Shown: positions 1,138 to 55,767 of the stretch, piece after piece
Position numbering within the stretch: position 1 is the first letter of the stretch
Layout of the letters: every line of letters starts with the position of its first letter
NCBI GenBank assembly: GCA_010405405.1
Contig: MU004244.1
Span: forward strand, 375,895-439,894
Direction: 5' to 3'
DNA length: 64,000 nucleotides
DNA from: Microthyrium microscopicum
Lineage: Eukaryota
Notes under the pieces: generated by a model
The model's input: only the letters and a program-made list of their open reading frames with translations
The model's database searches: none
Told to the model about the DNA's origin: nothing
Position numbers and translations under genes: made by a program

Positions 1138-2880
1138 ATCTAGCAATTACTACATACAAGGGGGTGTCTGAGCGACCATCACTTTTCGATTATGGGTGTA
1201 GGAGGTGGATGGATGAGTGTGTAAGCCCGGTTCAGCCGACCGTGGATGGTAAATCTAAAGCCCGTCGGATTCTCGGACGCGAAGGGTGAAGATGCCAAAG
1301 CAGACGTCCCAAAGCAGCCAAGCTAAGCGGTGTAGGCTTGTTGGATCTGTGATTCAGCAGTGATTCTTGTGGTCGCCTGGCTCCAAGCTTGCCCAAGCTG
1401 GCTTCGGTGTCGGTCAGACTTCGTACCACCTCGCTAAAACCTCTCCAAATCCCCCCTAATAACTCTAATCTTCTGCGGCGTTTACTAATGTCCCGTCCAC
1501 TCAGAAGCCCGCATTCATCGCGTCATCTCAACTCATCTCAGTTTTGCATTCCAAAGCAGCTTGGTAGGGCGCCCTTCTGACTGTTGTCATTGACTCTGTA
1601 GTGCTGCTTGTACTGCGACTGGTTCATACATTTCTAATCCAAAGCCCCGAAGTCAACCAACCACACACTGTTGCTTTCGGCCTCATCATACGCTCCGATC
1701 GGATTCCTAAACTCCTCTCTCAGCGACACATATTACCCCATTGGGGATTTATGCCTCTATTCTCGTTATCTCCTCCATTACGATAGCTTGCGTTATGCTT
1801 TGCACACTCGTAGAATTGACTGTCCGATCGACCAATCTAGTGGTGATTTAACTTCACAGCCTAAACTGCGGGTACTGCGTCGTCACCAAGAGTTTCATTG
1901 TTCATCCACAAGCCATGGCGTTGTATAGGAGCAACGAGTCCTTTGCAGATATTCAAGGCAGCTATTTTTCTTCTGCTTGTCCAAATTAGGTGTTCTTGTC
2001 GCGGCCCTCATTTCTTTAACTTGGCTGCCTTGTGTCAGCCCCTGTCATCGAGTGCCAATGGCATGGCTCCAAGCTTGCTTGCTTCGCCCGCTTCTCGGAT
2101 TCAATTTCCAACGCGAGGGGCATTGTGCGAGAATAGAAGATCTTTGAGGCTGGAGTTTGCATCGCAAGCTCAATTATTAGTCTTGAGACTTTTGCAGAAT
2201 ATCCATTGACTCAATCCCTCTATGTTTGGGGCATTGCTGCTATCCAAAATCGTTCCGACCCACAGATCTTGATCTGTATCAATGATGGCATGATACCATC
2301 AAGAAGTACGGAGGTAAGGAGGGGAGGTTTGCTGAGTAAAAGGCGAAACACAGGGGTCGAGCTCCCCTGCTCCCGTGCCGCTAAACGTGGCACCATCTCT
2401 CAACTCTGGGCAGGTGCTATCTCAAGTCTCAAGTTTATCGCTGCCTGCTTCCAAATACGCCTAATTTATCCTTAGGAGTGTGCGTACTCCCATAATATGG
2501 TACATGAGCTCCATCAATCTCGCTCATTGATACCATGTAGTAAAGAGGAGCCACAAAATGCTCCTGAATCCTTGAAATCCCGAATTCATTAAGTGTCAGT
2601 CCATTTACAGACATTAGACAATACTGTTTACAGTCTCAATCTTGCTTACTATCAAGGCAGAAACTCCAGCATCGATAGCAATGTCTCAAATCTTCACAAG
2701 ACAGTGAATAAAGATGAGCCATGGGGGAACTGTCTTCGCTTCAAGCCTTCAACCCATGAAAAGAATGAGATACAGAGTACGTGCTGATTATTCAATGCCG
2801 CACACTAGATGATGCCACTGTTTGATCGTAGGTAAACGTTAACGAACCATATATACAGACACGATATCTGCTTATATGAG

Positions 2881-3032
2881 TGTTGTGATAAAGAATATGC
2901 CAAGGGATTAGATAATCGTAGGACCTAATTAGGGATAATATAATTCCCTAATTAGCGTGTCCTAAAAACTATATTAGGCCCTTAGACTCTTATAGTAATT
3001 AACTACGCTTTATTTCTTATATTCTTATAATA
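2881..3032 (+). repeat. 5' LTR of the Gypsy element
   Basis: Aligns without gaps to 13642-13793, with differences dominated by C>T/G>A. Followed by tttagtagta, compatible with a RIP-mutated TGGTAGC-type tRNA primer site. Confidence 0.92.
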
Positions 3033-5650
3033 TTTAGTAGTAATAATTTAATTTAATTAGGACCTCTAGATAATAGACCTCTTATAAAAATTCCTAAATT
3101 TACTTTATTATTAATAATTACTTAGAATTAATATCTAGTAAGATATACTCTAAGAATACTATTCCTTAATTAGCTAGCCTTATTATAGCTTAATGCCTAG
3201 TAACTATATATTAAGAAATAATTCTTAAGATTTATATATAATAATATTCTTTACTACTATATATTTTAAAAATATCTTAAATTATTTTTAATTTAAACTA
3301 CTACTTTAAGAATTATTAAATATATTATAAGAATTATCTCTTCTATAATAATACTCTCTTTATTTCTACTAATTTCTACTATATTAATTATATAGCTATT
3401 AGATAAAATATAGAAACTTCTTCTTAAAAAATTCCTTAGAATAACGTTATAGGAACTTTACTATATAAATTAAAGCTAATAAGTAATAATATAGACTTTT
3501 AGCCTTAGGTTATCTTAGGAAATTAGATTAAAATTTTATTTATACTAAGGAAGTATAAAAATCTATTTTAGAATAATTTCTTAACTCTAAATTCTATTTA
3601 ACTAACTTTAGTATAGAAACTTTTAGATTTTAAGACTTTTTTTTTACCTTACTAAGATTATACTTTTTATTAAAACTATTACTTTCTTTTACTAAAATAA
3701 ATAACTAGTATAATAATATTATAGCTTAAGCTATAAAATAAGATACTTAGTAAATATAATACTAAGCTTAAATTACTAATTTAGGTTTTTAAGATAAGTA
3801 ACTTACTCTTATATTACTAAATAACCTTTCTAATATACTAAATCTTAGTCTTAATCTTATAACTTAAGTTATTAATATTTAGTAATTAAGGCTTTAAGCT
3901 TTAAATTATTCTATTAATATATATTAAGTTAATTCCTAGACTATTAATTATCCTTTTACTAAACTATAAACTCTCTTTTAGGCTTAGAACTATATTTCTA
4001 AGGAACTTAATTACGTTCTTTAAGCTTATAACTAAACTTTCTAATATAATAATAATAGAAATTAGTAGTTTATAAATAGGCCTATTCTTTTTTAGAGAGT
4101 ATTATTTTACCTTATTACTAATAGGTAAATTAAATAAAATTATAGCCTTAAACTTATAGAGAACGTTTAATATACTTAGTAGTAAGAAATAGTAAATTAT
4201 ATTACTAAATTAATCTCTTGCCTTAATATAAGTAAGTTTATCTTATATACTTAAGATTACTAAGTAAATAAAATTAAGGCTTATATTTAGACTTAGGCTT
4301 TAACCTAAGAAACTTTATAAATAGATATTACTTACTTAAACTTTATAAGAAAGCTAAGTAAGGAGTTAGATAAGACTATTAAATTACTTTTCTAAACTTT
4401 TAGTCTCTAAAAACTTATTAAGATAATAAGGAATATTCCTTAGAAATAGAAATAATATTTAACTAAGTTTAAGATACCTCTTAATAGTTTATTCTCTAAG
4501 AAACTAAGTAAGTATAATACTTAGGCTAAGAGCCTCTTTTATACTTTTAAGGCTAGTAAAGATATTCTTTTATTAAATTTTGCTCTACTTAAGTAGTAGA
4601 AAATTATTAAGGTTAAAGAATATCTTCTTATTAAGTAATGTCTTTTATAGGCTAACTTAGCTTAGTAATAGACTATAGAGAAGTTTAAGATACTTAAAAG
4701 TTTATCTTATTTCTTTACTTACTTTTAACCTATATTTAGTATTAAAAAAAATATACTTAAGATTAGTATTTAGTAGGATTATATATTATAGGTTTTATTT
4801 ACTAAGAAATTTATCTATTATTTTTATATTCTATAAACTTAAATAAATTCTATACTTACTAATTATAAAATAGGTATTTAAATCTAAGGAGGCTTTAAAG
4901 AATAAGTTATCTTTAAAGCTAAGTATAAGTATAGTACTATTCTTAACCTTATAGTTAATATTTTAGCTTTTAAATAAAAAATTATTAAATATAATATAAA
5001 CTTTTATAGAAATGCGTATAATACTTATAATGCTTATAAGCTAGAATAGCTTAATAAAATCTTTTTTAGTTTTAAAAAAAATAAAGAGCCTATCCTAAAT
5101 ACTAATTTTAAGAAATATCTTAAGAAAGTTAATAATAAAAGCTATACTAATAATAAGCTTAAGTTAAATAATAAAAATTTAGGATAGCTTAATACTATAA
5201 ATAGCTATAATTATTATCTTAAAGAATAATATAATACTTAATACTTTAAGAAATTTAACTTTAATAAAAAGTTATATTCTTCTTATAAAAAGGATTCTAA
5301 AAATAAAAAAGCTTCTATAGATAACTTTAAACTTAAGTACTAGAATTATAGTAAACTTAGCTACTATACTATAAATTATAAAAAACCTAACTAGTAATAA
5401 TAGAGTTTAAAAAACTACTATTACTAAGAAATAAATAAGAATTTTTTAGCTTAGAACTAAAATACTTTACTTATCTATATAATAACTAATAAGTTTTTCT
5501 TAACTATATAAGTAAATATAGTAATACTCTTTTATATCTATCTATTTACTTATATTATAAAAATTATTCTATTAAGACTATAGCTTTTTTAGACTTAGGA
5601 GCTAATTCTATTTATATTAGTTAAAAGATTATTAAGAAACTTAAAGCTTC

Positions 5651-6622
5651 TGTTAGAAATAGGTATAGATATTTAACTCGAACCTGTACTAAAACGGGTG
5701 CATAAAAAGCACGTTAGTGTCCACTAAGATTAGCAAAACACCTTGAATATTCCGTATAAGTAGAGTATATTCGTAAAGATTTAGACCGTTGCAGGAATTG
5801 AACCCGCGACCTGTTCCGATTCCTGACATTATCACCCTTCTTAAGGGCTGGCGTCCCGACAGCCCCGCAGCAGAATAACATCAAAACATTAGGCAGTTGC
5901 ACATAAACAACACACTACCGCAACTTCTACTCCTAGCCACGTACGCTTGCTTTATCAAAAATCTTGCCTGCTTCTACCGTAGCTAATCCTGCATCTGCAA
6001 CATTAGCTAGCCTGTTTGGGCTAGCCTTGATTCCCAAATTTAGTGATTCTCCTCACTGACTTTAGGGGACCCTCCACTCCGGAACTCAGATCGTGTTAGG
6101 TAGGGTCGCCTAAAATTAGTGATCGGAATCACTAAATTTGGGCATCAAGGCTAGCCCAAAGAGGCTAGCTAATGTTGCAGATGCAGGATTAGCTATGGTA
6201 GCAGGTCTTGTTCTGTGCCTCCTACGCTTTTTGGAGAAGGACTTTCAGTGCTGCTTGATCAAGGCAGGCTTGTTCTTGCCTTTACGACCAATCCAGGCTA
6301 AAGGACTTTCTTGTTCTTGCCTAAAATAAGGGCGCCCCTTCCCTGAGGGGCTGAAGCAAGCGTCATCACCTTTCAGGGTGTGTGAACGCTAATTTGGGGA
6401 CGGTAATTCCATACTGTTGGGCCCAAATGGATTAGCGGACACTATGTTAGAAACAGGCACAGATATTCAACTCGAACCTGTACTAAAACGGGTGCATAAA
6501 AAGCACGTTAGTGTCCACTAAGATTAGTAAAACACCTTGAATATTCCGTATAAGTAGAGTATGTTCGTAAAGATTCAGACCGTTGCAGGAATTGAACCCG
6601 CGACCTGTTCCGATTCCTAACA
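5651..6622 (-). mobile_element. Non-autonomous miniature LTR retrotransposon (TRIM) nested in the Gypsy protease region
   Basis: 178-bp direct repeats (5651-5828, 6445-6622) with TG...CA ends and 8 differences, 5-bp TSD GCTTC (5646-5650, 6623-6627), and a 616-bp non-coding interior. PPT-like GAAGGGTGATAA abuts one LTR on the minus strand. GC content is much higher than the host element. Confidence 0.93.
5974..6201. repeat. Long inverted repeat (hairpin) inside the TRIM
   Basis: Arms 5974-6049 and 6126-6201 are reverse complements at 73 of 76 positions. Inner imperfect arms 6053-6073 and 6102-6122 extend the stem. Confidence 0.92.
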
Positions 6623-9600
6623 GCTTCTATAATATTTATCTTAGAGAAAGAAATTACTCTTATAGATAGCTATATAGTTATAACTTCCTTTAGGATTTAC
6701 TTATTTTATTATATTAGGACTTTTTATAGCTACTTTAAGATATATATTCTAAATATTTTTAATCTTAATATTATTTTTAGACTCTTATAGTTTTAGTTAT
6801 ATAATCTATAAATTAATTAAATAATAAAGTAAATTAAGCTTATAGAGTAATACTTAGGAGGCCTTTATACTTATAAGCTTACTATAAGACGCTAAATAGA
6901 GCTTCTTTAGAATAAGAAGAGCTACTTAGAATAAATAGAGTAATTTATAGTTAGCTTTCTTTATATAATCTTTTAAGTACTTTAGAATAGAGTAAAAAGA
7001 GTAAAAAATAAAGTTAAGAACGTTCTTTAGCTAATTTAAGGAATATAAGAATAGCTTAATATTCTCTTAATAACTAATAATCTTAATATTAATAAACTTA
7101 CTCTAAAAGATAAAGGTATATAAAAACTTTTAAATAATTACTATAAGTTCTTTTATTATATCCTTTCTAAACTTTTACTATATTCTAAGTTTAATTATAA
7201 AATCTTTATAAGAGATACTTTTCTTTATAACTAGGCTTATTATTAGATATCTAGCCTATAACTAAAAAAGTAGAAAAAGTAGATTTAAGAATTACTTACT
7301 AAAGAACTTATTAAAGTCTTAAGAAGTCTTTAGAGTTTCTCTATCCTATTTATATTAAAGCTAAGAAAAAAATAGAGAATATATATTAACTATTATCTAC
7401 TTAATATAGTTATATATAAGGATACTTATCTTTTATTATAAATTAATAAGTATCTTAATACTATTAATAGAGTAAGATTCTTCTCTAAGCTTAACTTCCT
7501 ATTAGGCTATTAATAAGTCTATATAGTAAAAAAAAATATTAAGAAAATAGCTTTTAATACTAAGTTTAGGAAGTATAAGTTCTTTATTATACTTTTTAGA
7601 TTAATAAATACGCTATTATTTTTTTAGTATATAATAAATACTCTTCTCTAGCTCTTCTTATTAACTTATATAATTATTTACTTAAATAATATTATTATTT
7701 ACTTAGATACTATAGAAGAATATTATAAGTATATTACCTAGGTTTTAAAGATTCTTTAGAATAATAAGCTCTATGCTTATTTTAATAAATATATCTTTAG
7801 AATTAAGAAAATTAAATTCTATAGCTATAAAGTAAGAAATTAATAAATCTAATCCTTATATAAAAAGACTACCTTAATTAAGTCCTAGCTTATACTTAAG
7901 AATATATATAAAGTACGTTAATTCTTTAGTCTTACCTTATACTATTAGTAGTATATTAAAAATTTTACTAAGATTACTACCTCTATTTTTAATCTCCTAA
8001 AAGAGGCTAATCTAGATATTAAGAAAAAGAAGTACTACCTTATTACTTAGACTTATTAATATACTATAGCCTTTAATAAAATTAAGACTTTATTAACCTT
8101 ATTACTTATCTTAATAATATATAATTTATAAAAGCCTATAAAGCTTTAAATAAATGCTTTAAATTATATAATTAGTTATAAGCTAGTATAAAAAAATAAC
8201 TAAAGTAAATAGTACTTAGTTACTTTTAATAGCTATAAGCTAAGTAAAGCTAAACTTAATTATTTAGTATATAAGAAAAAGCTTCTTATAGTTAAGAATA
8301 TAATTAGGAAATACTAATACTACTTTCTAAGAAAAACTATTAAAGTAATTATAAATTATAATAGCTTATAATATATAAATATAATTAAGAATAATACTTA
8401 ATATATTACTTAATAAATTAAAGAGTTCTAAGAATTTAATCTTATTTTTATATATTATAAGAGTTTCTAAGTAGTAGTTCTTAATACTCTTAGTTATTAT
8501 CTAAACTTTTAAAAAGGATAAATTAATATTATCTAGAAAATAAAGCTTAAAGATAGTAATAATAATTTATCTTTTAAAGCGTAAGCTACTTTATTAGAAT
8601 CCTTATAAGAGTAAAAAGAATAAGAAGCTCTTTATATATAGAGCTTATAAAAAGTATTAGAAAAGAAAAATTATATTATCTCTACTAGTATATAAAAAAG
8701 ACTCTAAAAAAGTATTCTTAATTATTTTTAGATTAATCCTAATAAAGATATTAGAAGAAAATATAAGTATTTATTCTTAGAGAAAGATTCTATTAAAGCT
8801 AAGATACTTACTAGTTTACTCTATATTTATTTCTTTTATTACTAAGACCTTATTAAGAAAGTATATAATTAATATAGGTATTTATTATATATAGGCTTTA
8901 CTAATATCTTTAAACTAAAGAGTTAATAGCTAAGAATAGAGAATAACTTTTAAAAATTTATTAAGTTCTATCCTATATATTAAGTTTAATAAATAGATTA
9001 AAGTAGGCCTAAATATAGGTTTTACTATTAAGTATAAAACTTATAGCTATTTAAGGCTTAGAAAATTAACTTAATTAGTAAACTTCTATAAAGTCTTCTT
9101 AAGAACTAGTATATTATTTATATAATTAACTATATTATAAAATAGCTTATTATAGAAGTAGTATTAAATATTATTACTTCTATAGTTATAGAATTTATTT
9201 ATAGAAAAATTATCTTAAAATATAGTTCTTCTTAATTATTAATCTTAAATAATAGACTTTAGTTTATTTTAGACGTAATTTTATTTTTATTATAATAGAT
9301 AAAGACTAAGTACTACTTAATAGCCTTATATAACCCTTAGTCTAATAAAAAGATTAAGAAATTTAATAGCCTACTAGGTATATTCTTAACTAAGTTTCTA
9401 AAAGGAAAACTTATAGCTAGCTAAGATCTATATCTAGATTAAGTAGTTTATACTATTAGGATATAAGCTTATACTATATTAGAAATATTTCTCTTCTTCT
9501 TTATTTATAAAAAAAATCCTAAAGATTTTAAAATAAGCTAGGTAAAGGAAAATAAATAAGCTAAATTAACTAGTACTATACTTCTTATCTATATAATTAT

Positions 9601-12600
9601 TAAAGATTACCTAAAGAAGGTTAGAATTATTAAGTAAGTTTATTATAACGCTTTATTAAAATAAGCTATAGCCTTAAACCTTATTAATAGTAATATAATT
9701 TTAAAAGAGGACTCTATTATTAAGTTCTCTATAAGTTTTTATATACTTCTTAAAAATTTAAATAAAACTAAATTCTAGGTAGTATAGTTTAGCTCTTATA
9801 AAGTCTTAAAAGCTTACTTTTTAAGAATATACGCTTTTAAGATACTTAATAAAAGAATACTTAGAAACTTTATCTATAGAAATTACCTTATATAAGTATA
9901 TATATAAAAAGAAAATAAATATTATTACTAGAACTAGCTATATTTTAAATATAAGTAACTAAGTAAGAATAACTTTAAAAACGTTCTAAATAAAGAATAT
10001 AAAAGTAAAATAGATATATCTACTATAACTAAGAAAGACTAGCTTAATAGATTAAGAAACCTTTTAGTAGAGTTAATTAATATTAAGAAGTTTAGTATTA
10101 AGAGATATTACTTAAGTTTACTTACTATCTCTTTTAACTTTATAAGAAAAGTTTAAGAAGCTAAAATAGGTATTTATAAATAAAAAAAAAAAAATTCTAT
10201 AATAACTATTTATAATCTAAGTAGTAACTTAGAAACTTCTATAATATTAGAATATATTTCTTTTAACTTAATTTTAGCTTTAGTATAAAGTAATTTAAAA
10301 TAGATAGAGTAAATTATATAGAAGGTAGAATATTTTATAGTACTATAAGATTTAGTAAAAGAGAAAAATAATAATATTTCTATTCTTCTAAATTAAAACT
10401 TAGTAAAAAAGGAAATTCTTCTAGCTATAGTAAATTAAGAATTAATCTTTATATTATTAGAATAATAAGAGTAAAGAAATAAATTATTAAAGCTAAAGAG
10501 CTATAATAAGATTACTACCCTAATTGCCTATATATCTATACTAGAAGTAATAAATCTATATAAATAGGTATCTAATCTTAAAGAAGATTATTAAAATATT
10601 AATCCTTTATTACTAAATACTATAGAAGTAAAGGTTTTTTCTATAGATTATCCTAAACCTAGTCTACTATAAGAGATAAATATAACTAAAGGATTCTTAT
10701 AGAATACTAATATATTTAGGCTAATTATAACGCTTAGTAATTCTATATACTTTAGTACTAGCTTATAATATTTAGAATTAAGATAAAAATAGTAGAAGAC
10801 TACTTCTAAATAAGAAATTATTCTATATATAGATATAGGTAAGGTACTTATAAGAAAAAAAAGAAAAATTAATCTTTTATTATTTCTTTTATAACCTTTC
10901 TTAATTATATTTATTTAAGGAAACTATTTATAAGAAATTACTTTTATTTATTATTAATTTAAGTAAACTATTATAAGTAATAATAACTAAAATTAAACCT
11001 TTAAATCTCCTTAGTAATCTCTAAGACTATTACTAAGGTTATTTAAATATAATAAGCTATCTTTAGATCTCTCTAGTAATTCCTAAGACTATTACTAAAA
11101 GCCTTTTTATAAAATATTTAATAGTAAGAAATAGGAAACCTAAATAACCTAAATTCCTAAGCTAACTTACTACTTTCTAATTTTAAAGTAATATAAGCTT
11201 AATACTACCTTTCTCTATTTCTTAGAAAATAACTAACTCTAAGAGTCTAGTCTTATTTCTTTCTTTATATAAGTAAGCTAATATACTTCTTCTCTATTAA
11301 AACTAAATATAGTTAGTAAAGCTTTTAGATAATTAGAAATAGTATAAATAATAGGCTACTAGTAGAGCTATAAATAGAAGTAATAAGTAGTTTAGTAATT
11401 ACCTATATTAATTATATAGTACCTATGCTTATCTTCTTTATTATAAATAAATAATTTTATTTACTATTTAGAGTATAATTTATATAAGCTCTATTAAATA
11501 TAAAATTACTCTTTATATCCTAAAAGACTATATAATTATACTAAGTAATAACTTCTTTATCTAAGAGCTTAAGTATATAGTAGTATTTATATTTATTATA
11601 ATATTAATTAGGTTAGTAACTTTAAATATAAGCTATAGCTACTTATAACTTATTACTACTAAATAATAAGTTAGTTATTACTATAGTAGCTAGCTTAGTC
11701 TAAGTAAGATTATACTTAATATAATATTTAAGTAATACTAAGATCTTTTAAAAGATTTTAATTCTCTAATTTTAAAGATTCTATAAGACCTAGATAAGCT
11801 TATTCTAAGTCTTTTTCTTATATATTTATAGCTAGTAGTTTAAATAGATTAATTAACTACTTATTATAGTATAAGCTATATTATTAAGTAAATACTTATA
11901 AGTTTACTTATTAAGCTTCTTTAAGAAAGCTAAATAATAACTTAAATTAAGCTCTACTTTAATTTAAGGCTTAGGTAAGGTTTTATATATACTACTTTAT
12001 TTTTTTATAAGCTAACATAATAGCATCTTTATCTTTTCCTTACTTAAAAACTTAACGTACTTTAGTTTATTCTTAAAAATATTTAAGAAGCTAGTTTTAT
12101 TAACTATATACTTATATACTTATAGAATATTATAAGTTTATTCTAGCTTAAGTATTATATAATAGTAGTAGCTTTAGCTATACTCTTAGTTAATAATCTA
12201 GTATAAGATTATTTTAAAATATACTAAGCTATTTTAAATACGCTAGAATATATCTTCTATTACTTAAATCTAAAAATATATTATATTTTACTTTATACGT
12301 ACTTATATAGAGTTAAGTAATATAGTATTTAAGAAGTTATAATTTAGACTAAAGGTATTAGTAATATAAGTACTAAATATTATAAATAGCTTAATCTTAT
12401 TTTAATCTAGAAAACTTATTTCTTAGAGCTATTAAAGCATTACTTACGTTAGAGTATTCTTCTTAATAGAACCTATTTTTCGTTTAAGTATTTCTTAAGT
12501 AGCTTATTTATAAGCTAACTTCTACTAGTAAAAGAACTTATTCTTTAAGACTAGAAAATATTATTTAAACGTAAGTAATTATTTATAAGATTATCTTATC

Positions 12601-13641
12601 TTAGAATTAATATTATAGTAGCTTATAGAAGCTTACTAGTAAGTCTTCTTAGGAAAAGGATTTAAATAGCTAATACTTTATTAATAACTAAATTTAGCTA
12701 AAGAAGGTAAAAAGTAGTTATTATTATTCTCTATACTTAAGAATTTTAATATACTACTTTATTAGCTATAAGCTTTAGCTAGAGAAAATAAATATATAAG
12801 TATATTTATAAATAATTATAAATATTCCTTAGAATAAAGTTAAGTAACTAGACTTAAAGATTAAGTAGTAGAACTTAAAGCCTACTATAAAGATTTAGCT
12901 TAATTATATTAAGCCTAAGAAACCTAAGAGTAAGTACTACGCTTTCTAAATAGCTTTAAAGATAATATAATTAATTTAGTATAAAAAGCTATTTTAAAAA
13001 GCTTTTATAATTAAGAGCTTAAGAAGAATTAAGAATTAAAGAAGGAAAATATATAAAGCTACTTATACTTAATAATATTAAAAGTATAAGAGGAAATTTA
13101 CTTCTACTAGCTTAAAGTATTATAAAAGTATAATAAAGAAGAAGAAGAGAAAATAATAGATTATAAAGCTTTATAGATATAAGATTAAGTCCTTATCTTA
13201 TATTTACTTAAACTAGTAATTATTACTTAGTTCTTTATTACTACCTATATATTACTTTTTATAAACTTTATTCTTTAAAACTTTAAAGTATAGGTTATAT
13301 ATATTTTTTACTAGATTAAGTAGCCTTAGTATATTTATATAAACTTCTTATAATTTCTTAATTTATTACTACTAATAGCCTCTATATAAATAAACCTTTT
13401 TAAAAGGATTAGGAACTATAAACGCCTAAGTACTATTTATAATAATTTAACCTAAATTTTAAGAAAAATCTTAGAGAGATAATTCTTTAGAGATTACCTT
13501 ATAATATAGCTAAGGTAATAGCCTTAGACCTTAGATAAGTTCCTTATTAGTTATTATAATGTTCTTTTTATTTTACTTATTTATTAAAGCTATAACTATA
13601 GGATTTATAATCTTAAAAGAGTTTATGCTAGTAAGAAAGAA

Positions 13642-13793
13642 TATTATAATAAAAAATATACTAAGGAATTAAATAATTATAGGACCTAATTAAGGATAAT
13701 ATAATCTCCTAATTAGCATATCCTAAAAACTATATTAGGCCCTTAGACTCTCGTAGTAATCAACCACGCTTTATTTCTCATATTCTTGCAACA
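13642..13793 (+). repeat. 3' LTR of the Gypsy element
   Basis: Second LTR copy ending ttgcaaca, followed by TSD ATGAG and preceded by purine-rich agtaagaaagaa. Confidence 0.92.
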
Positions 13794-14314
13794 ATGAGCA
13801 TTCCCAACGTCCAGAGTGTTCTCTTGCATGCCATCCAGCCTATCAGGGCTCAGAGACCTTATGCATGCCTCTGGTTTGCTCACTAATCCTCCCTGTTCCT
13901 TACGCTTTCATTGAATCTGAGCTCGGGGCCTCGGAGCAACCGCGGATTCAAGGTTTGGTCAGCGGCCCAACCCATGTTCCAACACCTTTTAGAGACACCA
14001 CGAACTCCTTAACGTTATCTCATCCCTGATTACTTCCTGATTACCTGGTCCTGATCAGCACTTTGTCTTGATGACCGACCGCTTCTTCGGTGCAACTCAC
14101 AGCTGTTAGACGATCAGGTCCCGAGCGTTTTGCGACACCACAGTCTCCACCAGTTCAGATCATGCACTCACCCACAGTCGCCAATGTCTCACAAACACAC
14201 CAGAATTCTTATCGCGCGATGCTCACATGCACAGCGCCCTAGACGACGAACCATCGTTATTGAATAAATGATCAGTTACTCAAAAGCCTCCTAATCTCGT
14301 TTTCTTTTCCCGCC

Positions 14315-45339: not shown

Positions 45340-46023
45340 AGAACCACCAGCTGGCGTTTTTCATACCCAACTCAAGTGTGGTAGACCAAAAGGCAGGAAT
45401 AATTCTAGCTAATGACGGGTACCCTACCCTGCTACTGTACCTTTATTTCATGTATCTTGAGTGCTGTTTCACTGAAGCCCCAGTGCCGGTTAGATGATCG
45501 AGAATATCTGCCAGGGCAATATCGAATTCCCTTCCATAGTTCTCAAAGCCCGCAAGCCTTGACGCTCTACCGGTGCTGAGCACGGCTACTATTGCTCGTA
45601 ATTTGTCCCTAGTTTCCGTTTGGTTCGCATTGTAGTAGTAATCTTCTCCACTTTCTTCTACTCTGCCTGTGTTTATACATTGCTTCTATCTACACCCTGT
45701 TTGATATGATACTCCCTGGACAATTATTGAGCAATTTGGATTCTCAGCAGCCTAGATTATTGCATAATGAGAATTAGTTTCTTTCTAAGTTTTGCGAACG
45801 GTATGCCAGCTGCTTCCAACTTCCAGTCCTTACCACAAGCCAGTCTTGCCAGTCTTTTCCAAGGTTCAACGCGAAATCGGTTCCAAGCTATGGATGGTGA
45901 AAAATAACTGTGCCATTTTCTTTTCAAGTATAGAGCAACTCACAGCCAGTAAACTGTTGTTCTTTCACAATCGTTTCTGTGGCTTTGACCGCACCTGGCC
46001 GAATCACTAGCTGGCCAGTCGCG

Positions 46024-47828
46024 ATGTATCTCATTCATTCGTTATTTCTCATTCTACCACTGTTTGACGGTGCTAGAGCCGCACCAAAGCCTTTGGCACA
46101 ATCGCCGTCACCGCCGACAAAGCCGCGAAATCCAAATACCCCCAAAGCATACGTCGCGAACGGCTCAAGGGCGGAAGAGATACGAACGGAATTCCGATGG
46201 GCATGGAATCGATATAAGGACGCTCCCGGCAACAAGCCTCTAGCAGATGCTAAACAGAGTGTGAAATGGCATGATGAAGTGGTTGCATCCGATGGAAGCA
46301 TTTATGATTCAAGGAACGGATGGGGTGCCACCCCGATTGATGCTCTGTCCACGGCAATCATAATGGGAGAGAAGGAGATCGTGAAGCAGATTTTGTCATT
46401 CATTCCAACAATCAAGTTCGGGAAACAAATGTACGAACGAAATACTGTTAGTCTATTTGAGACAACAATACGCTATTTAGGAGGACTTTTATCCGCCTAC
46501 GACTTGATAGGACCAGGTGGACCAAAAGCTGAACTTGCTCAAGGCATGGTGAGTTCTGCTTCGAGTTCATGCCAGTTTTGCATCGAGCATCAAACTAACT
46601 CGAGTACAGGATACCACAATCCTTTTGACTCAAGCGAAAAACCTGGCGGATTTCCTTGAATATGCATTTACTTACGTTACAAAACCAGGCATGGCGCCGA
46701 CAGGCATACCAAACAATGAACTTCGTTTTCCCGGCAACAAAACTGGAGATTTTGGTTTCCAAGATGGCCCCGACGGGATACCCTTGGCACAAGTAGGCAC
46801 TTTGATCTTGGAATGGACTCGTCTTGCGGATCTTACGGGAATCAAGAAATATGCCGCTCTGGTTGATAAAGCCCAAAGCTACCTCCTCAGACCAAGCGAA
46901 GAGATTCATCCAGGATTGATTCCGTCGATGCTGAATATCACGACTGGCAAGCTCTACGGTGGCGAAGCCTCTTGGGGTGCGAATGCAGACTCTTTTTATG
47001 AATATCTGATCAAAATGTATGTCTACGACCCAAAACGATACGGATTATACAAGGATCGATGGATCCTGGCGGCAGACTCCTCTATCAGCCATATGAGCTA
47101 CACCTCCAAGGACGCCAACGTCACATTCTTGGGACACCTTGTGAAGGACGCAAAGCCAGAAATGCAATATAATAGTCAACATCTGGCTTGCTTTGCTGGC
47201 GGAAATTTCATCTTGGGTGGTACGATCCTTGATCGGCAAGACTACATTGATTTTGGGCTACGGCTGACCGACGGCTGCCACAAAACGTATTCGAGTACCG
47301 CAACAGGCATTGGTCCTGAGCTTTTCAGTTTCGACCCCAAGCCCAAATTGCAATCTGCTGTGCAGAAAGACATGTTTTCAAAGGCTGGCTTCTACGTTGT
47401 TGATGGTTATGGCTATTACAACCTGCGACCAGAAGTAGTTGAAAGCATCTATTATGCTTATCGAGCTACTGGAGACAAAACGTATCAGGACTGGTCTTGG
47501 AATGCCTTCCAAGCTATCAAGAAGAAATGCAAGGTAGTAGAAGGTTATGGTTATGCCCTCTTGAACGACGTGACCAACGACAAAAGCGAAATACGGAAAG
47601 GTGGCTATCAAGAAAGCTTTTTCTTTGCCGAGACCCTGAAGTATCTGTACATGATCCATGCAGAGGTAAGTCAAACTACATCTTTTCAAGTCAAAATTGA
47701 CAATTTACTAACTCACCTGACAGGAAGCAGATTGGCAAGTCTCGGGACCGGGCCCTAACAAGAACCAAAAGTTTGTTTTCAATACCGAAGCACATCCCAT
47801 GAAGGTGTACTCTGAGCGTAAAAAGTGA
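46024..47828 (+). CDS. Secreted class I alpha-1,2-mannosidase (GH47)
   Basis: Signal peptide; SLFETTIRYLGGLLSAY, DSFYEYL, HLACFAGG, LRPEVVES, ESFFFAETLKY, FNTEAHP; introns 46549-46609 and 47666-47723. Confidence 0.94.
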
Positions 47829-49267
47829 GTACCTTGATAACTTTTGTATAAGCTTGCATCAGTTTTGTCAGCGGTCATATTACCCCATGGAGTTTGTTGC
47901 TTGCATGTTCTGGCAATGCATTTGATAGCTGCTTATCGTATGATGCAGCGGTAGCCATCAAGTCTTTTAGTACATAATACATGTTAATTCGCATGCAAAA
48001 GTTTCTCGTTCGTAATATATCTTCAAGCTCTCAGATCTTGAGCATCTTAGCCGTATGGTTGCTTCTCACCAGCCTTGGGTACACTACTGGAATGACTACC
48101 ACAAAACACGGCTCAATTGCAGATCCCAACCACACTTGAGTTTACAATCATCGGAGTGTCTAGTTGAATGCTCAGGAGTACTAAGTGTTGCAACCGAAAT
48201 CGGCCCTTCGACTAGTGTAATCTACAATTCCCTCAGTTGCGAAATATCTCCTTACTGCGCAGCTGGAGCCTGGTTTCGATAGACTGGCGCGCAACTACAT
48301 CTGGTTGAACCACGGTACGCTCAATACAGCACATCAGATCCAAGGAACTATGACCTTTTTCTGCTTTGGAAGGCTCATACATAGCTCCCCCAACTGGGTA
48401 CATCTGGGGGTAAAGAAGCCCGTTGCCGAGTAGATTGACGCCTCGATGACCATGCAGGACCAAGGCATCTCAAACCCCAAAGGAGGGTATTGGTATCAAG
48501 CCTTGATGCTGGAGGAGGCAGAGTCTTTCACTTCCCTGGACGTTCATTGCAATTTGTACCGTGGAAGCTAATCTGGAGTTCCTGGAAGGGGATAGAACTC
48601 GAACAATGAGATCTGAGGTAGGCATGGGGCAATAGATGAAGCGCTGTTACCAGGCAAAACAAGTTGTTGCGAAAACCTTGATGCTCAACTGATGGTCCCT
48701 TCCAGATTTTCCTGAATTCAGTACCTAGATGGGGACGATGGAAACAATCAGAAGCGCACAGTCGCCGTCGTCTTTGACCATCGGTGGTTCCAAGGAGTCT
48801 CGTGAACGAGTTTTAGTGCAGTTACCGATTTGAGTACCGCTTCTTTGCTCGTAACTGACTGAAATGGTGGTTCTGGGGGATGTATCTTCCACCACGCTTG
48901 TATCAGCTATCGTGAGATATCTGAATGCAGTACCGTCGTTGTACTGGAAGTAAGATCAGCCCCAGTTAGGCAGTTGTATTCTTAAGGGTATAACTTGCCG
49001 TCATCGTGCAAAGATTGCTCTTTCCTTTCCTCCCCAGAACTCCTTTTGCTACTGCTGTAATGCTGCCAGTTTTGTAAACTGCAAGTCTTCAGTGCTTCTA
49101 CTCTTCATTCTTCACCACGCCATACTGGTTCTTCTCTCATCTCTAATTAATTTCTCATCTTCTATATACCTCCCGTTCATGTCCATTTCATTCCAACCCA
49201 TTCTTCCTTCTTCATTTCCCTGGACTTCAAGTTTTATTCTCCCCTTCATTCTAGCATCGTCAGCACC

Positions 49268-50077
49268 ATGTGCTCTCGATCACCCATCCCGTCCTTTGCG
49301 ACGGCGATGACATTCTATCCCGGCGCACAAACTCCTGCTTATGGCAATCCTGGTTATCCATATGGTCAAACACCATCACCACCTGGATATTATCCATATG
49401 GTCAACCGCCATCACCGCCTGCATATTACCCATATGTGCAACAGCAGCCGGCGCCCTGGGCCTACGGGTACCCATATGGGCAAAATCAATCACATACGCC
49501 TGCAGTCTCCATTGCAGGCTTATTACGGGGTCGAATCGCGTGGTTGCCCAAAGACGCAACGAACATACATCCCAATGATCCGTTGTTTCAGTCCCCCGAA
49601 TTTGCCAGCCACCGTTCGCCTTTCAATCACCCAGTCGTCCTTCTGGATTACGACCCTATTACTACACGGGTCTTGTTCCGGCAAGTAACCAGTTTTGGTA
49701 GTCAGGGCATCGAGGAAAAGCACAAGGACGACCTCTTTACACGACTTGGCTACCTACTGATTCGGGATGCCGCGAGAACCAGTCACGATAACCTGCCTGA
49801 CCTGGAAGTGAGTCGTCCGATGTGCAAACCTTCCTACATCAATATTCGAGGAGGTGTGTGTAGCATCGAACTGCACCATCTTCGGTACCTTTGGCAGGGA
49901 CCACAGCTTAGTGCGGAAGCTGTAGACATCATGGAGGACCACGACCGCAGATACGATCAGGTTCAAGAAGGAGTTCGACAAGCTCGCCAGTCTGAGCCTC
50001 GAATGGACAAACAACAGCTGAACGCACTCTGTGATCGTCTCTACCATGATACCTTCCTAGACGATTCTTCGGCTTAA
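49268..50077 (+). CDS. Hypothetical protein: PGYPYGQ-repeat N-terminus plus putative PemK/MazF-like domain (copy A; start may be ATG 49307)
   Basis: Intact 269-aa ORF with RGRIAWLP...FNHPVVLL...VTSF...PSYINI...CSIELHHL; paralogous to downstream copies. Confidence 0.65.
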   Translation: MCSRSPIPSFATAMTFYPGAQTPAYGNPGYPYGQTPSPPGYYPYGQPPSPPAYYPYVQQQPAPWAYGYPYGQNQSHTPAVSIAGLLRGRIAWLPKDATNIHPNDPLFQSPEFASHRSPFNHPVVLLDYDPITTRVLFRQVTSFGSQGIEEKHKDDLFTRLGYLLIRDAARTSHDNLPDLEVSRPMCKPSYINIRGGVCSIELHHLRYLWQGPQLSAEAVDIMEDHDRRYDQVQEGVRQARQSEPRMDKQQLNALCDRLYHDTFLDDSSA

Positions 50078-50374
50078 TCGTGGCTTCCACCTGACTCTTA
50101 GCAACTCCCAGGCTCAAACACCTCAAGTATCTCTGGATTCAAGCGAAAGTCAACGTTCGTCCTCGAAATCAGTAGGCCGATGGACATATCTCCGTTTGTA
50201 AACATCCGAAGAGGCCTCTGTGACATCGAACTGCGCCATCTATCGAATGTGTGGAAGGAACCAAGGCCGAAGCAAGAAGCTTCAGCGTGGTACTCACCTA
50301 CCTCTTTTACGAGCTGCAGCGAGGCCAAAGAAGAGATTATAAGTCGGTTCAAGGGTCCATGGGTGGTCAGTTAG
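50078..50374 (+). pseudogene. Degenerate, internally deleted second copy of the same domain, in frame with copy A
   Basis: WLPPD at 50081, and LEISRPMDISPFVNIRRGLCDIELRHLSNVW aligns with copy A LEVSRPMCKPSYINIRGGVCSIELHHLRYLW. Confidence 0.65.
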
Positions 50375-50547
50375 GGGTGCGCTTTCCCGACACGCCCTCC
50401 ATACCTACCATACCGCAGGTTTTCCCAGTTGGAAAACCGCGACCCGCGATGCTCCTTCTGTTTACTCTTAGCCCCAGGCTCTCCCGGTCCTCCCAACAGT
50501 CCCCACACAACCCTCGTCAATTTCATATTTAACATCCCCTTGTTATT

Positions 50548-51298
50548 ATGTTCTGCCAAACTTCTCCAGCAGAGATGCTATTATACTCGCCGAGCCGGTC
50601 CTCTTATACGACACAACCGACTGCCTACTCCTCCCCAGTGTGGCAAGGTCCTACATATGGGCAGGGCTTCTATAACCAGAACTTTTATGGCCAGATTGTG
50701 TACAGCCAGAGCCACCGAACACAGCAACAGGCTCCCTTGCTATATGGCTTCTCAATCAACGGACAGCAGCAATATCATCCTGCCGCTTATGGATACGCAC
50801 TATATAGTCAACATCGTCCACCTCCAATGTCGGGTCCGAATGTTCTACGCGGTATCGTTGCATGGTTACCAAGGGATAGAACGGGCATCGACCCCAGCGA
50901 CCTTCTCTTTGCCTGCCCAAGTTTCCACCCTACGAGGGAAGACAAACCCTTCAACCATCCGATAGTCATTCTCAATGAGCAAAATGCTTTGGGTCGGGTT
51001 GCCGTTTCTGCAGCTTACCAGCTGGAGAGGATTCCCTATCGAGCTAAAGCACCCCGACAGTCGTACACGAAAAGGGTACCTGCAGATCGAATCCTCCCAA
51101 AGAAGCGGCCATGACGGGTTACCAGTCCTTCAGCTCCAAAGTAGTGAAGAAATGCGATGGCCTTCGTACGTTGATCTACTCCGGGAGGTCTGCACTATCG
51201 AAACGAGGCATTTACACTGGCGAGGTCAGCAGTTGACGGAGCAGGCAACACGCTTTTTGGAGGGATACTACTGGAATTATCAGAGTGGTATTTCATAA
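50548..51298 (+). pseudogene. Frameshifted paralog (copy B): Q/Y/G-rich N-terminus plus putative PemK/MazF-like domain
   Basis: LRGIVAWLP...PFNHPIVIL in one frame continues as FLQLTSWRGFPIELKH...PSYVDLLREVCTIETRHL in the +1 frame, with the shift at about 51000. Confidence 0.7.
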
Positions 51299-53504
51299 GA
51301 AGTCGTGCTCAATAAAGAAAGAATCCTTCAGGCACTATACGTCCAAATCATCCACCACAGCTCGCTGCCAATCAACATCGCCAGGCTGGGCAGTTCATTA
51401 GTCCAAACCACCAAGAATGACCCGGCGCATGCGCTCAACTGTCAATCAGCTCTCTCACTATTCAAGCTCCTTCCAAAGGCTTCCTCGTTTGAAGGAAACC
51501 CTGATTCAAAAATATTCCGGGATTGAGCAGAGGCTGTATTGACTTTGAATGTTCGCGTCGCCATGATGAAGCTGGTGAAGATGAAAGTCAAAATCGACAA
51601 GGAAGGCATCCGCAGATGTCATCTCTCTCTCATCGCAAGGATGGTTACCATAATCGGCAGTGACCCTGAAACCGGTCCGGGCCCTTCTTTTCTCTCTCCC
51701 TCTCATGCGAAACTGGTCATCGTTTCTGAGCTTGCGATTGCAGCCACACGAATCACAACGTCCACAAAACGGCAGCACGATACTCGACTTCTTTTTTGGC
51801 TATCCGCCGCCTTCTTAACGAGTACTCCTTCCATCGGATTCGTCCTTTGGCCTTGGACTTTTCCCTCATCAACTTCTTCTTTTGTCTAAGCATCGGAGTC
51901 TGGGTTCTTATAATATTATAGCCTGAGATGGAATTAGTTCGGAGCATACTGAGCATTGGTTTGAGTTGTTTTGTTTGGACGCATTTTCTGATCGAAGTCT
52001 CCGGTTTATCATTTGGTTATTGCTCTTAAGTTACTGTATAATATTTGCTTGTGGATCATCACCAGTACCACCACGGCGTTCAGCCAGGTACAATACATTA
52101 TTCTATACAACTTCTTTAACCCATAAATGTCAACTTATACGTTGCTTAACATTGACAAAGTGATGTCTTTGTGTTTGTCCCAGCTAGTGGTAGAGTATCG
52201 TTGTCTTTCCCATTTACTAAAGTCTTTGTCTCTGACTTGTCAAGGAAGTACTAGAAACACTTTGTGCTTAGTGGCTTATAGCATCTTGTATAAACCTATC
52301 GTGTCATCGGAAATCCCTTGCTAAATCTGATTGTCATTTTTAAAGAATCTAAAAATTGTTAATGTATGAGTATGATAGTATTGAAGGTTTATGGAGAAGA
52401 GGGGCGCAAAAAGGCGTCGAGATCGACAGGGTTTATTGCTCTAGAGGACTGTAAGAGGCTAGCGCCCGCACCTTATCTCGACGTCAAACACCTCAGTGGG
52501 ACCTCAGAATTCATACTTCTTCGTGCCCAGTACTTCTCGCGAGAAATGTTCATGAGTCTGGATCTACCAGCTTAGCTTCCTAAGAAGAAAAGGCATTTCA
52601 ATGTATGTTGGTTAGCTATGAATTGTTCCTTTCGCAAGCCTACTTTCTTAAGTTCGACGAACATGATAGCGCTCAATCGGATCCGACTCAAGGGCGATAA
52701 ATATTGAGAAGTTACGTATTTTGAAAATGTACCATGGTCCTCGATATGACATAAATGTCCGATCTTCCAAGGAAAATGTTAAAAATTTCTGTACACTGCG
52801 CTGTAATAGCTTTTCTGGTTTCTGTCAATTGAATACTAAGGTATTGCATATTCCATGATAACATGTTCTTTTCATGTCGAACTTCACGCTTGAAACAGCA
52901 TATTTAGGACATCGGTTTTACCCCGTATGTAGTACAGAAGCTTCAATAATCATCATGCGGTTACTTGGCTACCCCAAACTTCTTTTGTTTACTGTCTGTG
53001 CTGCGATTGCAAATCATCAATACCTGTTAGTACCCTGGTCTTCAGCAACGTTGTAATATAATGTCCGAATCCTTCCAATTTGAAACCCTGCGATTCGCAC
53101 ATGTATGTACTTTAGTTTTACCACCTTTCAGGTTGAATTCGAATCAATGGACAAGTATCTAGGTTCGTTGCGCTTCCTGCCGCGCAAAAGATACCAATGA
53201 TTCCCCACTGCCCAGTAGATGCTTTGGTGGGAGACTGGGGGCCAAAGTGTTTTTAGAACACCCTTTACGAGTTATCAAGGCCTCTTTTCAGAGCGGCACA
53301 GCGGAAAGGTAATCGAGCCAGTCATAAATCAGCTGCTTCAACCACCTTTACCCCATTGTGACTAACATCTTATGCTCGAAACGATTTGTAAAGAGCCCGT
53401 TCTCAGCTCAGAGGAATTACTACGGCCCAAATGCGAAATTGGAGATCATTGTTCATACCAAGGATCACTTAGTACGTGTGCAGACACGGAAAATACACCC
53501 GAGA

Positions 53505-55767
53505 ATGAAGGTTACCAGTTATCTTTGCGCTATCGGTGGCTGTAAAACTGTGTCAGGAGAGATCCTTGGTCAGTCCTCCTCACAATATGTCCTCGTGAGT
53601 ACCACAGGAAAAGAAATCTGATTGCTCCAAGTTGCTTCACATACTCTGAACTCTACCAGCATTACGAATGCCAGAGCTGCCTATCCACTTTCAACACATG
53701 ATCAGACAATAAATTCTACCTCTTCAGCGCCCGTTTATACTCAACCGCCCGCGAACTGCTCGTTTTCTGACTATGAGACTATCTCGGACCCAGGAATCAG
53801 GCCAGATGCTTTTTATGAGACTTACAAGTGGAAGCCTGAACAAACTGCAACTGTGGTGACCGAAGAAATTGCCACTGTGCTGTATGAATTGATAAGAACT
53901 ATGGCCCCAGGAGAGATTTACGAAGGAAGCGACGGAATAAAGAGATATCGCCCTACAGCATCGCCTACAGAAACAATATCCGAGACTGTGACTGTCTTCA
54001 AGACTCTCCACAACCACTACCGTGATAAGATATATAATGCTCAGGCACCTGTTCATCTTGTCATTCAGAAGAACTGTCGAGAGGAGCTTACAAGCTCATT
54101 GACAATGAATGACGAGTTAAACCCTCGAGGATGCAAGTCGGAACACTGCGAGTATGGAAGTCCAACTGCTCAAATGTTGGGCTCCTACGAGCGACCTCAG
54201 CTCGACTTTTATCCCTACAAGCATTGCGATATGCTTCCAATAGGTGAAGCCATTCTTTTCCATTGGCCGCCAACCAAAACATCATCTTCACCCGATACTT
54301 CACCAGTCATAATTGTCTCAAGCTCGATAATTTTTGACGGACAGGATATGTACCCTCGCGTTATGATAAAAAATGGTACTTCATCAGAGCTCCAGCGCGG
54401 TTATATCGCGGCATCCACACTACTAGGGCCTTTTACATTTACCTCACCGACGGTATACTTGGCTCACCGCGAAATAATGGCTCGGATTACCTCAATTAGT
54501 TCAAATCCCCCAGAATCTTCCCGGCAAAATTTCAACGAGGTTGTAGCAACTGATGTGCAACTACATCCAGCTGGATTGCGAGCCGTTGAACATCAGAACA
54601 TCTATTCCGTGCGACATTTTCCGCGAAATAATGCCACAGGGGCTGAATTCGTAAGCCTGGTAGCAAGTGGGAAATACGATCCAGGCTGGAACGATCAAAG
54701 TCATTATATGCAGCTACGTCCTATGAATTTCTCAGATCTTGCAAACCCGGTACCTGCATCCGTTTACTACGAAGCTAGATCGGAAGATTGCTATGGCCGC
54801 CAGACGCATTGCGCAATCATCACGGTATGACAAGTCTCTTGTTCATTCACTCTCTTAGCATTTCTAATATAAAACGCAGGATGATACGTACAGGCCAAAA
54901 CTTTTCATCAAGGACAAGTTCTGGTCACGCCTGTTCCCTCCAGGATTTGAATGTAATCTGCCATTGATCAACGATCCTCCAAGGACCATCAAGGGCCTGG
55001 TGGTTGAAGACGAATCTGACCTCGCACCGCCTACAGTTCCTTATCAAAACAACGCTCCGCGAATAACGCCTCCAGCATCGATAAATCTGCCTCACGTGTC
55101 AGCCCGGCCTCGCCCCACGAGAAGGCCACAACACGGGACATTGACAGCACCGCTTAGAGGATCAGCGACTAAAATGACTAATCCACCTTCTGGACAGAAT
55201 CGAGAGTCGAGGGGCAATAGAGGGAGTGGTGACGGGAAGAGCAACGAGAAAGGCGAGAATAAAAGTAATGGTCGTACAGGACGAGGTGGTCCAGGCAGAA
55301 GCGGGGGAGAGAGCGACAAGGAGCCAGGTGACAGCACTGATTCCGATCTTCCGCAAGACGGAACGAGTCAGGGAGAGAGGACGAAGGGTGGCAGAAACAA
55401 AAGTGACAAGAGAAAGGGAGAGAGAACACACGATGGAGAGACACAGCCAAGACAGCACGACGAGTCGGAAGAATTTGACGATGGGAGACCTAGCAAACCT
55501 GCACGAGGATCCAGCACACATTCAGGCCAGTCTTGGCCAGGAGAAGGCGAACAATCAGATGGTGCAAGTGTGCGTCCCGGATCTGGTAACGCCGCAAATT
55601 CTGTGGAAGATGATGGAGATCATCGCAAAAGCTCTTTGAATCATGGCTCTAGTCCACGAAAGAAGAATGATGGCTCGTCTTTAAAGATGAATCTCATAGG
55701 AACTCTGGAGCAACTTGTCTGGACATACTTCTTATATCGTTGCATCGTAGCAGGGATACTCGGATGA
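53505..55767 (+). CDS. Secreted/cell-surface protein of unknown function, possibly GPI-anchored
   Basis: Exons 53505-53568, 53632-54824 and 54880-55767 join in frame. Cys-containing domain (FTSPTVYL...DLANPVPASVY...CAIITDDTYRP...DPP), G/S/charged low-complexity region, hydrophobic C-terminus. Confidence 0.72.

Follow-up and report, generated by a model that had tools for sequence, protein, structure and literature searches.

A tandem fungal gene family with a predicted MazF/PemK-type fold in Microthyrium microscopicum

A 64-kb stretch of the Microthyrium microscopicum genome (assembly GCA_010405405.1, contig MU004244.1, 375,895-439,894 of the forward strand; hereafter the window, to whose positions all coordinates refer) carries three related gene copies in tandem on the + strand, namely an intact copy A, a 40-codon remnant and a frameshifted copy B. 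It is highly probable that the protein encoded by copy A shares the fold of the MazF/PemK toxins and is homologous to them, and it probably descends from them. Most likely, the copy A family forms an antitoxin-less eukaryotic branch of the CcdB/MazF fold superfamily, with insertions in the domain. MazF, PemK and CcdB are textbook prokaryotic and plasmid proteins, and a MazF/PemK fold in fungi is not so far described in the papers searched. Natural fungal homologues of MazF, PemK or CcdB were not found in these papers either, in a search that did not reach subscription journals or annotations in databases (for example Pfam clan assignments), so prior recognition is possible. In the accessible part of Guglielmini 2008 (PMC2446400), eukaryotic look-alikes are described for ParE and Doc, not for PemK/MazF.

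Predicted fold of the copy A domain and its alignment to MazF

Copy A is 100% identical to the public gene model P0001 and matches the family hidden Markov model (HMM) at 187 bits (E 2.8e-56). Its product is predicted to consist of a disordered, Pro/Tyr-rich N-terminus of ~78 residues, a domain of ~160 residues and a short extra helical tail, as laid out below.

49268-50077, + strand: copy A, an intronless, intact ATG-to-stop open reading frame (ORF) of 269 aa (stop codon included)
49268-49501, + strand: residues 1-78, disordered Pro/Tyr/Gly/Gln-rich N-terminal region
49511-49993, + strand: residues 82-242, predicted MazF/PemK-fold domain
49628-49630, + strand: codon CAC of the invariant His121, placed by hhalign on the MazF catalytic Arg column
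49688-49690, + strand: codon ACC of the invariant Thr141, placed by hhalign on the MazF catalytic Thr column
49994-50074, + strand: residues 243-269, a loop (243-247) followed by extra C-terminal helices (248-263 and 265-268)

Residues 1-78 include 19 Pro, 13 Tyr, 8 Gly and 8 Gln (24% Pro, 17% Tyr), and in a full-length AlphaFold2 (AF2) model the ten-residue blocks across residues 1-80 have mean predicted local distance difference test (pLDDT) values of 39-58. This region contains two PPxY motifs (PPGY and PPAY), a motif type bound by the WW domains of Rsp5/Nedd4-type ubiquitin ligases. The domain is modelled with strands at residues 89-92, 122-129, 134-142, 162-165, 189-192 and 198-201 and a C-terminal helix starting at residue 216; the full-length model has helices at 216-242, 248-263 and 265-268, with block means of 93 and 91 over residues 241-260 and 65 for residues 261-269.

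When 1.84 billion representative proteins were searched exhaustively with phmmer (E <= 1e-3), only 10 matched the copy A family, two of them the window's own. The best foreign match had an E-value of 5.9e-10, and the relatives that carry a name are listed as hypothetical proteins from the Sordariomycetes Monosporascus sp. and Bionectria ochroleuca. Word-indexed homologue searches returned only the query, the query with P0007, or the query with P0007 and P0010. In the relatives the domain stands alone, flanked by variable low-complexity regions, and no fusion to another domain was seen among those examined, no search having been aimed at longer or shorter forms such as NLR fusions. Four columns of the nine-sequence family alignment are invariant (P94, H121, T141 and L205 in copy A numbering), and those kept in seven or eight sequences include G88, P122, F143 and Y190. 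Several polar residues are conserved as well, K151, H173 and D174 in seven of nine sequences and R159, K187 and N192 in eight. At the 21 positions conserved in at least seven members, copy A carries the majority residue in all cases except S117, where the family has Gly. Among other libraries, PHROGs gave nine singleton families (E 0.0058-0.96), none of them described, NCBIfam gave three unrelated singletons only and PADLOC gave no match. The sole sequence or profile match in the PDB was a CopG regulator with an E-value of 1.5, which is at chance level.

An AF2 model of the domain (copy A residues 79-235), built from the nine-sequence alignment, reached a pLDDT of 90.2 and a predicted template-modelling score of 0.85. 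All 29 rows listed by Foldseek against the PDB were MazF, MoxT, YdcE or mRNA-interferase toxins, with template-modelling (TM) scores by target of 0.52-0.69, and the model matched MazF, Kid and CcdB by Foldseek and VIA. MazF-type chains aligned over 91-124 residues including the C-terminal helix, whereas SH3/KOW rows covered 48-81 residues and the Z score dropped from 8.5 to 6.6. When the BFVD viral library was searched, phage PemK-like proteins or endoribonucleases occupied 12 of the top 15 rows. The ESM Atlas model, which comes from a different predictor and was made without the nine-sequence alignment, matched a bacterial PemK_toxin cluster over 109 residues with TM scores of 0.57 by query and 0.75 by target. 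As modelled, the domain thus has the SH3-like barrel and C-terminal helix of the CcdB/MazF (PemK) fold superfamily, superposable on MazF, Kid and CcdB. MazF endoribonucleases are obligate homodimers, the groove for RNA and antitoxin being formed by the dimer. A homodimer prediction with two copies of the fungal domain scored 0.00; it was run without controls and carries no weight either way.

A residue-level link to MazF was obtained by aligning the fungal profile with a set of 13 bacterial toxins, comprising E. coli MazF and 12 diverse plasmid MazF/PemK/ChpB toxins. Untrimmed, the two profiles aligned by hhalign with a probability of 14%; after trimming to the domain, the probability rose to 41.7% (P 2.7e-4, score 28.9). 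For control, the columns of the MazF alignment were shuffled 100 times, which gave scores of 10.9 on average (sd 2.3, maximum 20.2), and the reversed alignment scored 12.5. The observed score exceeds all of these, and the signal is therefore weak but not due to chance. The 26 confident columns pair FNHPVVLL...RVLFRQVTSFG of the fungal family with GHRPAVVLS...MCLCVPCTTQS of the toxins, so that the invariant His121 falls on the Arg column of MazF, itself nearly invariant, and the invariant Thr141 on the Thr column. We take these MazF columns to be R29 and T52 of E. coli, numbers that agree with the conserved columns of the 13-toxin alignment, and the Bacillus MazF equivalents are R25 and T48. 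His121 and Thr141 are two of the four columns invariant in all nine family sequences, and copy B has both residues too. With relaxed settings, the G-x-I-x-W strand also falls on MazF GDLIWV, outside the 26 confident columns, and the fungal family has 14 additional residues in its beta1-beta2 loop. Setting the model strands against the MazF strand layout suggests that the beta3-beta4 and beta4-beta5 loops carry insertions as well.

The preliminary description of this DNA, made from its letters, had proposed a eukaryotic PemK/MazF-fold family in which the catalytic Thr is kept and the Arg position is His. The pairing of Thr141 and His121 by hhalign is exactly of this kind, and the MazF/Kid-type matches of the predicted structure by Foldseek agree with the proposed fold, for which two structure predictions and the weak, above-control profile alignment argue. 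Membership in Pfam PemK_toxin did not hold: the PF02452 profile matched neither the window proteins nor the nine relatives, and the copy A family is consequently not a member of PemK_toxin by sequence. The lack of a PemK profile match is among the outcomes that the preliminary description had itself named as counting against its proposal.

Copy B, the middle remnant and the age of the duplication

The three copies lie where they had been described on the + strand, as borne out by their ORFs, tblastn, pairwise BLASTP and the family HMM. A scan of the six-frame translation of all 64 kb with the family HMM gave matches with E-values of 2.8e-56, 4.1e-17 and 3.8e-08 and a match of 0.054 to the remnant; no locus beyond copy A, the remnant and copy B was found in the six frames. 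The shared motifs had also been noted correctly, in the forms RG-x2-AW, NHP-V/I-V, TSF/TSW and SY(I/V)-x-(C)-(S/T)-IE-x2-HL.

50162-50281, + strand: middle remnant of 40 codons with homology to residues 179-218 of copy A (last domain strands)
50548-51298, + strand: copy B, with a single frameshift, in two frames
50548-51000, + strand: N-terminal part of copy B, frame 1, a Gln/Ser/Tyr/Pro-rich region followed by the first domain half through NHPIVILNEQNALGRV
51001-51004, + strand: frameshift site in copy B, where the tblastn segments stop at 51000 (frame 1) and restart at 51005 (frame 2)
51005-51298, + strand: C-terminal part of copy B, frame 2, FLQLTSW...SYVDLLREVCTIETRHL and the terminal helix (stop codon included)

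A tblastn search of the window with copy A gave two segments with a joint E-value of 8e-29, one pairing copy A residues 9-135 with 50602-51000 (frame 1), the other pairing residues 137-236 with 51005-51292 (frame 2). By BLASTP the two halves are 46% (N-terminal, E 3e-16) and 40% (C-terminal, E 2e-17) identical to copy A, and the C-terminal part matches the family HMM with an E-value of 4.1e-17. Copy B retains every family motif, including both key residues (His in NHPIV and Thr in LTSW), and apart from the frameshift neither half contains a stop codon. Its N-terminus is Gln/Ser/Tyr-rich and has no PPxY motif, which is therefore not conserved between the copies. An intron behind the change of frame was ruled out, since the switch between frames takes place within 4 bases, a span that leaves no room for a fungal intron. 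Among public gene models, copy B appears as P0003 (179 aa; window 50548-51114), which is its N-terminal frame run past the frameshift to an out-of-frame stop; this model continues into unrelated residues, and a broken gene is thus annotated as intact. Copy B either died recently or its frameshift is an assembly error.

The middle remnant is 50% identical to copy A by tblastn (E 5e-8), with a BLASTP E-value of 2e-8, and it lacks an N-terminal part, which makes it a gene fragment. It is nearer to copy A, with a synonymous divergence (dS) of ~1.0 and a ratio of nonsynonymous to synonymous divergence (dN/dS) of 0.37, measured over 40 codons only. Just upstream of it and in another frame, 50113-50136 encodes LKHLKYLW, which resembles LHHLRYLW at copy A residues 202-209 with a non-significant E-value of 6.4 and may be further debris of a copy.

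Between copies A and B, the proportion of synonymous differences (pS) is 0.82 and that of nonsynonymous differences (pN) is 0.41. Synonymous sites are saturated, and the duplication is therefore old; the excess of pS over pN indicates that purifying selection acted on both lineages during the greater part of the time since. Beside copy A, the locus would hold an ancient tandem duplicate (copy B), whose frame was broken only a short time ago, and the fragment of a third copy. The evidence bearing on the birth-and-death turnover proposed in the preliminary description is the presence of these three copies at a single locus. Repeat-induced point mutation (RIP) was ruled out as a cause of decay here, as its indices are normal (TpA/ApT 0.67-0.91; (CpA+TpG)/(ApC+GpT) 1.02-1.18).

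Possible function and competing explanations

The explanation we favour, to which as a whole we give slightly better than an even chance, is that of a MazF/PemK-derived fungal domain with a His/Thr site that cleaves RNA and belongs to a conflict-type locus. The domain would be a very distant MazF/PemK homologue, a CcdB/MazF (PemK) SH3-like barrel with a C-terminal helix, enlarged by insertions. MazF endoribonucleases cut single-stranded RNA at specific sequences and leave a 2',3'-cyclic phosphate. In the fungal domain, single-stranded RNA would be bound across the face of the barrel and cleaved by metal-independent 2'-OH transesterification, with His121 serving as general acid/base in place of the MazF Arg and Thr141 stabilising the transition state. 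The conserved K151, R159, H173, D174 and K187 would line this site, the Lys, Arg and His residues acting as phosphate binders. Without an antitoxin partner, any restraint would need to come from the protein's own disordered or helical extensions or from expression control. The domain probably binds RNA and is possibly an RNase in which His replaces Arg, and we regard true RNase activity as a tentative assignment, somewhat on the doubtful side of even.

Several results weigh against a MazF/PemK relationship. Pfam returned no family at E <= 10 for copy A, both halves of copy B and the remnant, and no PemK or DUF6590 match at E <= 1 in the nine relatives. An HMM of the 13 MazF/PemK toxins scored the fungal proteins at no more than 5.1 bits, and neither phmmer nor a profile search of the PDB found a MazF. 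The hhalign probability is only 14-42% and its confident columns number only 26, His occupies the catalytic Arg column in all nine sequences and the canonical Arg is absent, and the match of His121 and Thr141 to the MazF site is one of sequence profiles, not of positions in three dimensions. The fold itself is a prediction from an alignment of nine sequences, not a solved structure, and the best Foldseek E-value against the PDB is 1.1e-3, none reaching <= 0.001. From such a shallow alignment, with no match in the sequence libraries and Foldseek E-values of only about 1e-3, the likeness to MazF might be an artefact or convergence, in which an unrelated small beta-barrel of the SH3/KOW/Tudor-like kind was drawn to a well-represented template class. 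We consider this improbable, as two different predictors agree, the MazF-type alignments extend beyond the coverage of SH3/KOW rows with a gap in Z score, and the profile alignment outscores every shuffle and the reversed profile and falls on the catalytic motifs. Even less probable is that the cluster is decaying and without function, copy A being an orphan ORF that merely is still open and has no current role. Two of the three copies are broken and the family is tiny and patchy, with its 10 matches among 1.84 billion representatives, but copy A keeps an open frame of 269 codons and the majority residue at 20 of 21 conserved positions, its model is confidently folded, and the pS and pN values imply long purifying selection on both lineages.

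The most serious competitor, although we judge it rather unlikely, accepts the MazF/CcdB fold but denies that the protein acts as a nuclease. It would instead be an adaptor that binds RNA or DNA, or a CcdB-like poison that binds a protein, with His and Thr needed for binding or folding. CcdB, itself no nuclease, demonstrates that the fold need not belong to one. The replacement of the catalytic Arg in every member of the family would fit such a role, as would the large insertions that the spacing of the model strands suggests for the beta1-beta2 and beta3-beta4 loops, which in MazF recognise substrate and antitoxin according to the accessible part of one study (PMC7354611). The same part of that source describes the MazF Arg as the general acid/base and the Thr as a charge stabiliser, both being key catalytic residues, and reports that Lys and Ser stand in for Arg and Thr in the active MazF4 and MazF7 of M. 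tuberculosis, Lys being an active variant at the Arg position in MazF4 (PMC7354611). Among the 13 bacterial toxins in the alignment, one itself has His in the Arg column. In other metal-independent RNases, His is a competent general acid/base, which counts against a non-nuclease. The only confident profile alignment, moreover, is with the active-site strands of MazF and not with CcdB, and both catalytic columns hold invariant residues amid variable neighbours. A Thr or Ser at the end of the third strand, as in the MazF catalytic site, is provided by Thr141 on the evidence of the alignment.

Compared with MazF, PemK and Kid as represented by Pfam PF02452 and PDB entries 4mzm, 6kys, 8zws, 1m1f and 5cr2, the fungal family has in common an x-P-V-V-hydrophobic strand and a T-S/T motif ending the next strand, both of which align to the active-site strands, and it keeps the Thr column. 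In contrast to them, it is eukaryotic (Pezizomycotina), only ~12-15% identical and missed by the Pfam model. It further departs from MazF in having His for the catalytic Arg, in its longer loops (beta1-beta2 by 14 residues with relaxed hhalign; beta3-beta4 and beta4-beta5 as the model suggests) and in its disordered N-terminal and helical C-terminal extensions. The fungal gene is also monocistronic and occurs as tandem paralogues with no adjacent antitoxin found. The adjacent, co-transcribed antitoxin gene that marks a type II toxin-antitoxin system did not appear in an ORF scan of the locus: none of the 30 small ORFs of 41-115 aa scanned at 47981-53545 gave an antitoxin-type Pfam match, a scan that a novel, unrecognisable partner would escape. 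No antitoxin family was found among the larger neighbours either (GH47, Lon, Vps36 and RBM39-like), in keeping with the earlier remark that no antitoxin-like partner is evident. With neither a MazE/AbrB-type nor any other antitoxin family found around the locus, any control must differ from the bacterial scheme. The gyrase poison CcdB (PDB 1vub) and the type III toxins CptN, ToxN and AbiQ (4rmo, 4ato and 4glk), compared by structure only, score below MazF and Kid against the fungal model. In type III systems the toxin is paired with antitoxin repeats made of RNA; tandem repeats of this type were not noticed at the fungal locus, no search having been aimed at them.

A further lead concerns DUF6590 (PF20233), an uncharacterised fungal domain that was not found in the papers searched. 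By language-model features, the nearest named ESM Atlas clusters are DUF6590 clusters of Ascomycota (0.92, 0.92 and 0.90; DUF6590 share of members 69%, 17% and 73%), followed by PemK_toxin (0.90), and a cluster with 43% DUF6590 matches the ESM Atlas model with a TM score of 0.66 by query. The Pfam DUF6590 HMM, in contrast, gives no match to copy A, copy B or the nine relatives. As a lead from the ESM Atlas, the fungal family may be a divergent relative of DUF6590.

Confidence in any particular biological role is low. The pattern of tandem gain and loss in a sparse, patchy and very divergent family would fit a conflict-type function (self/non-self recognition, antiviral or selfish) better than housekeeping. 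One could go further and picture an antitoxin-free fungal descendant of MazF/PemK with a His/Thr site, gated in cis by its PPxY-bearing N-terminus through ubiquitin-ligase targeting or by its C-terminal helices, and acting as a conflict effector that cuts RNA in cell death on allorecognition, during infection by mycoviruses or in meiotic drive; with DUF6590 alongside, it would stand for a broad eukaryotic arm of these toxins that has gone unrecognised. We think this extended scenario unlikely to hold in full, but such a conflict effector, if true, would explain the tandem gain and loss and the extreme divergence. A native eukaryotic branch with the layout of the catalytic site, an Arg-to-His change and no antitoxin would raise the questions of how a toxin fold was domesticated and restrained, whether RNA-cleaving effectors of bacterial ancestry take part in fungal immunity or allorecognition, and whether DUF6590 has the same fold.

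Genomic setting

The window is fungal nuclear DNA, with genes for Vps36, a mitochondrial-type Lon protease, a GH47 mannosidase and an RBM39-like RRM protein in the neighbourhood. The three copies sit between the GH47 gene and a Ser/Thr/Pro-rich ORF pair with a hydrophobic C-terminus, flanks that agree with the preliminary description.

45934-47758: GH47 mannosidase gene, upstream of the copies
53622-55767: Ser/Thr/Pro-rich ORF pair, downstream of the copies, with no Pfam match

The downstream pair comprises two adjacent long ORFs, the first rich in Ser, Thr and Pro and the second rich in Gly, Ser, Pro and Arg with a hydrophobic C-terminus. The two probably belong to a single gene with an intron, whose low-complexity product may be anchored in the membrane or wall. 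The ~2.3 kb 3' of copy B (51300-53600) contains no ORF of at least 120 aa; it has 13 small ORFs (41-108 aa), of which 12 had no Pfam match and one had a sub-threshold match (E 0.055). At the other end of the window, positions 2000-14000 form an AT-rich block with a GC content of 18-31% in 2-kb windows. RIP-like indices were observed at 4000-13000 (TpA/ApT 1.62; (CpA+TpG)/(ApC+GpT) 0.19), and the block at ~2-14 kb is probably a RIP-degraded repeat or transposon region.

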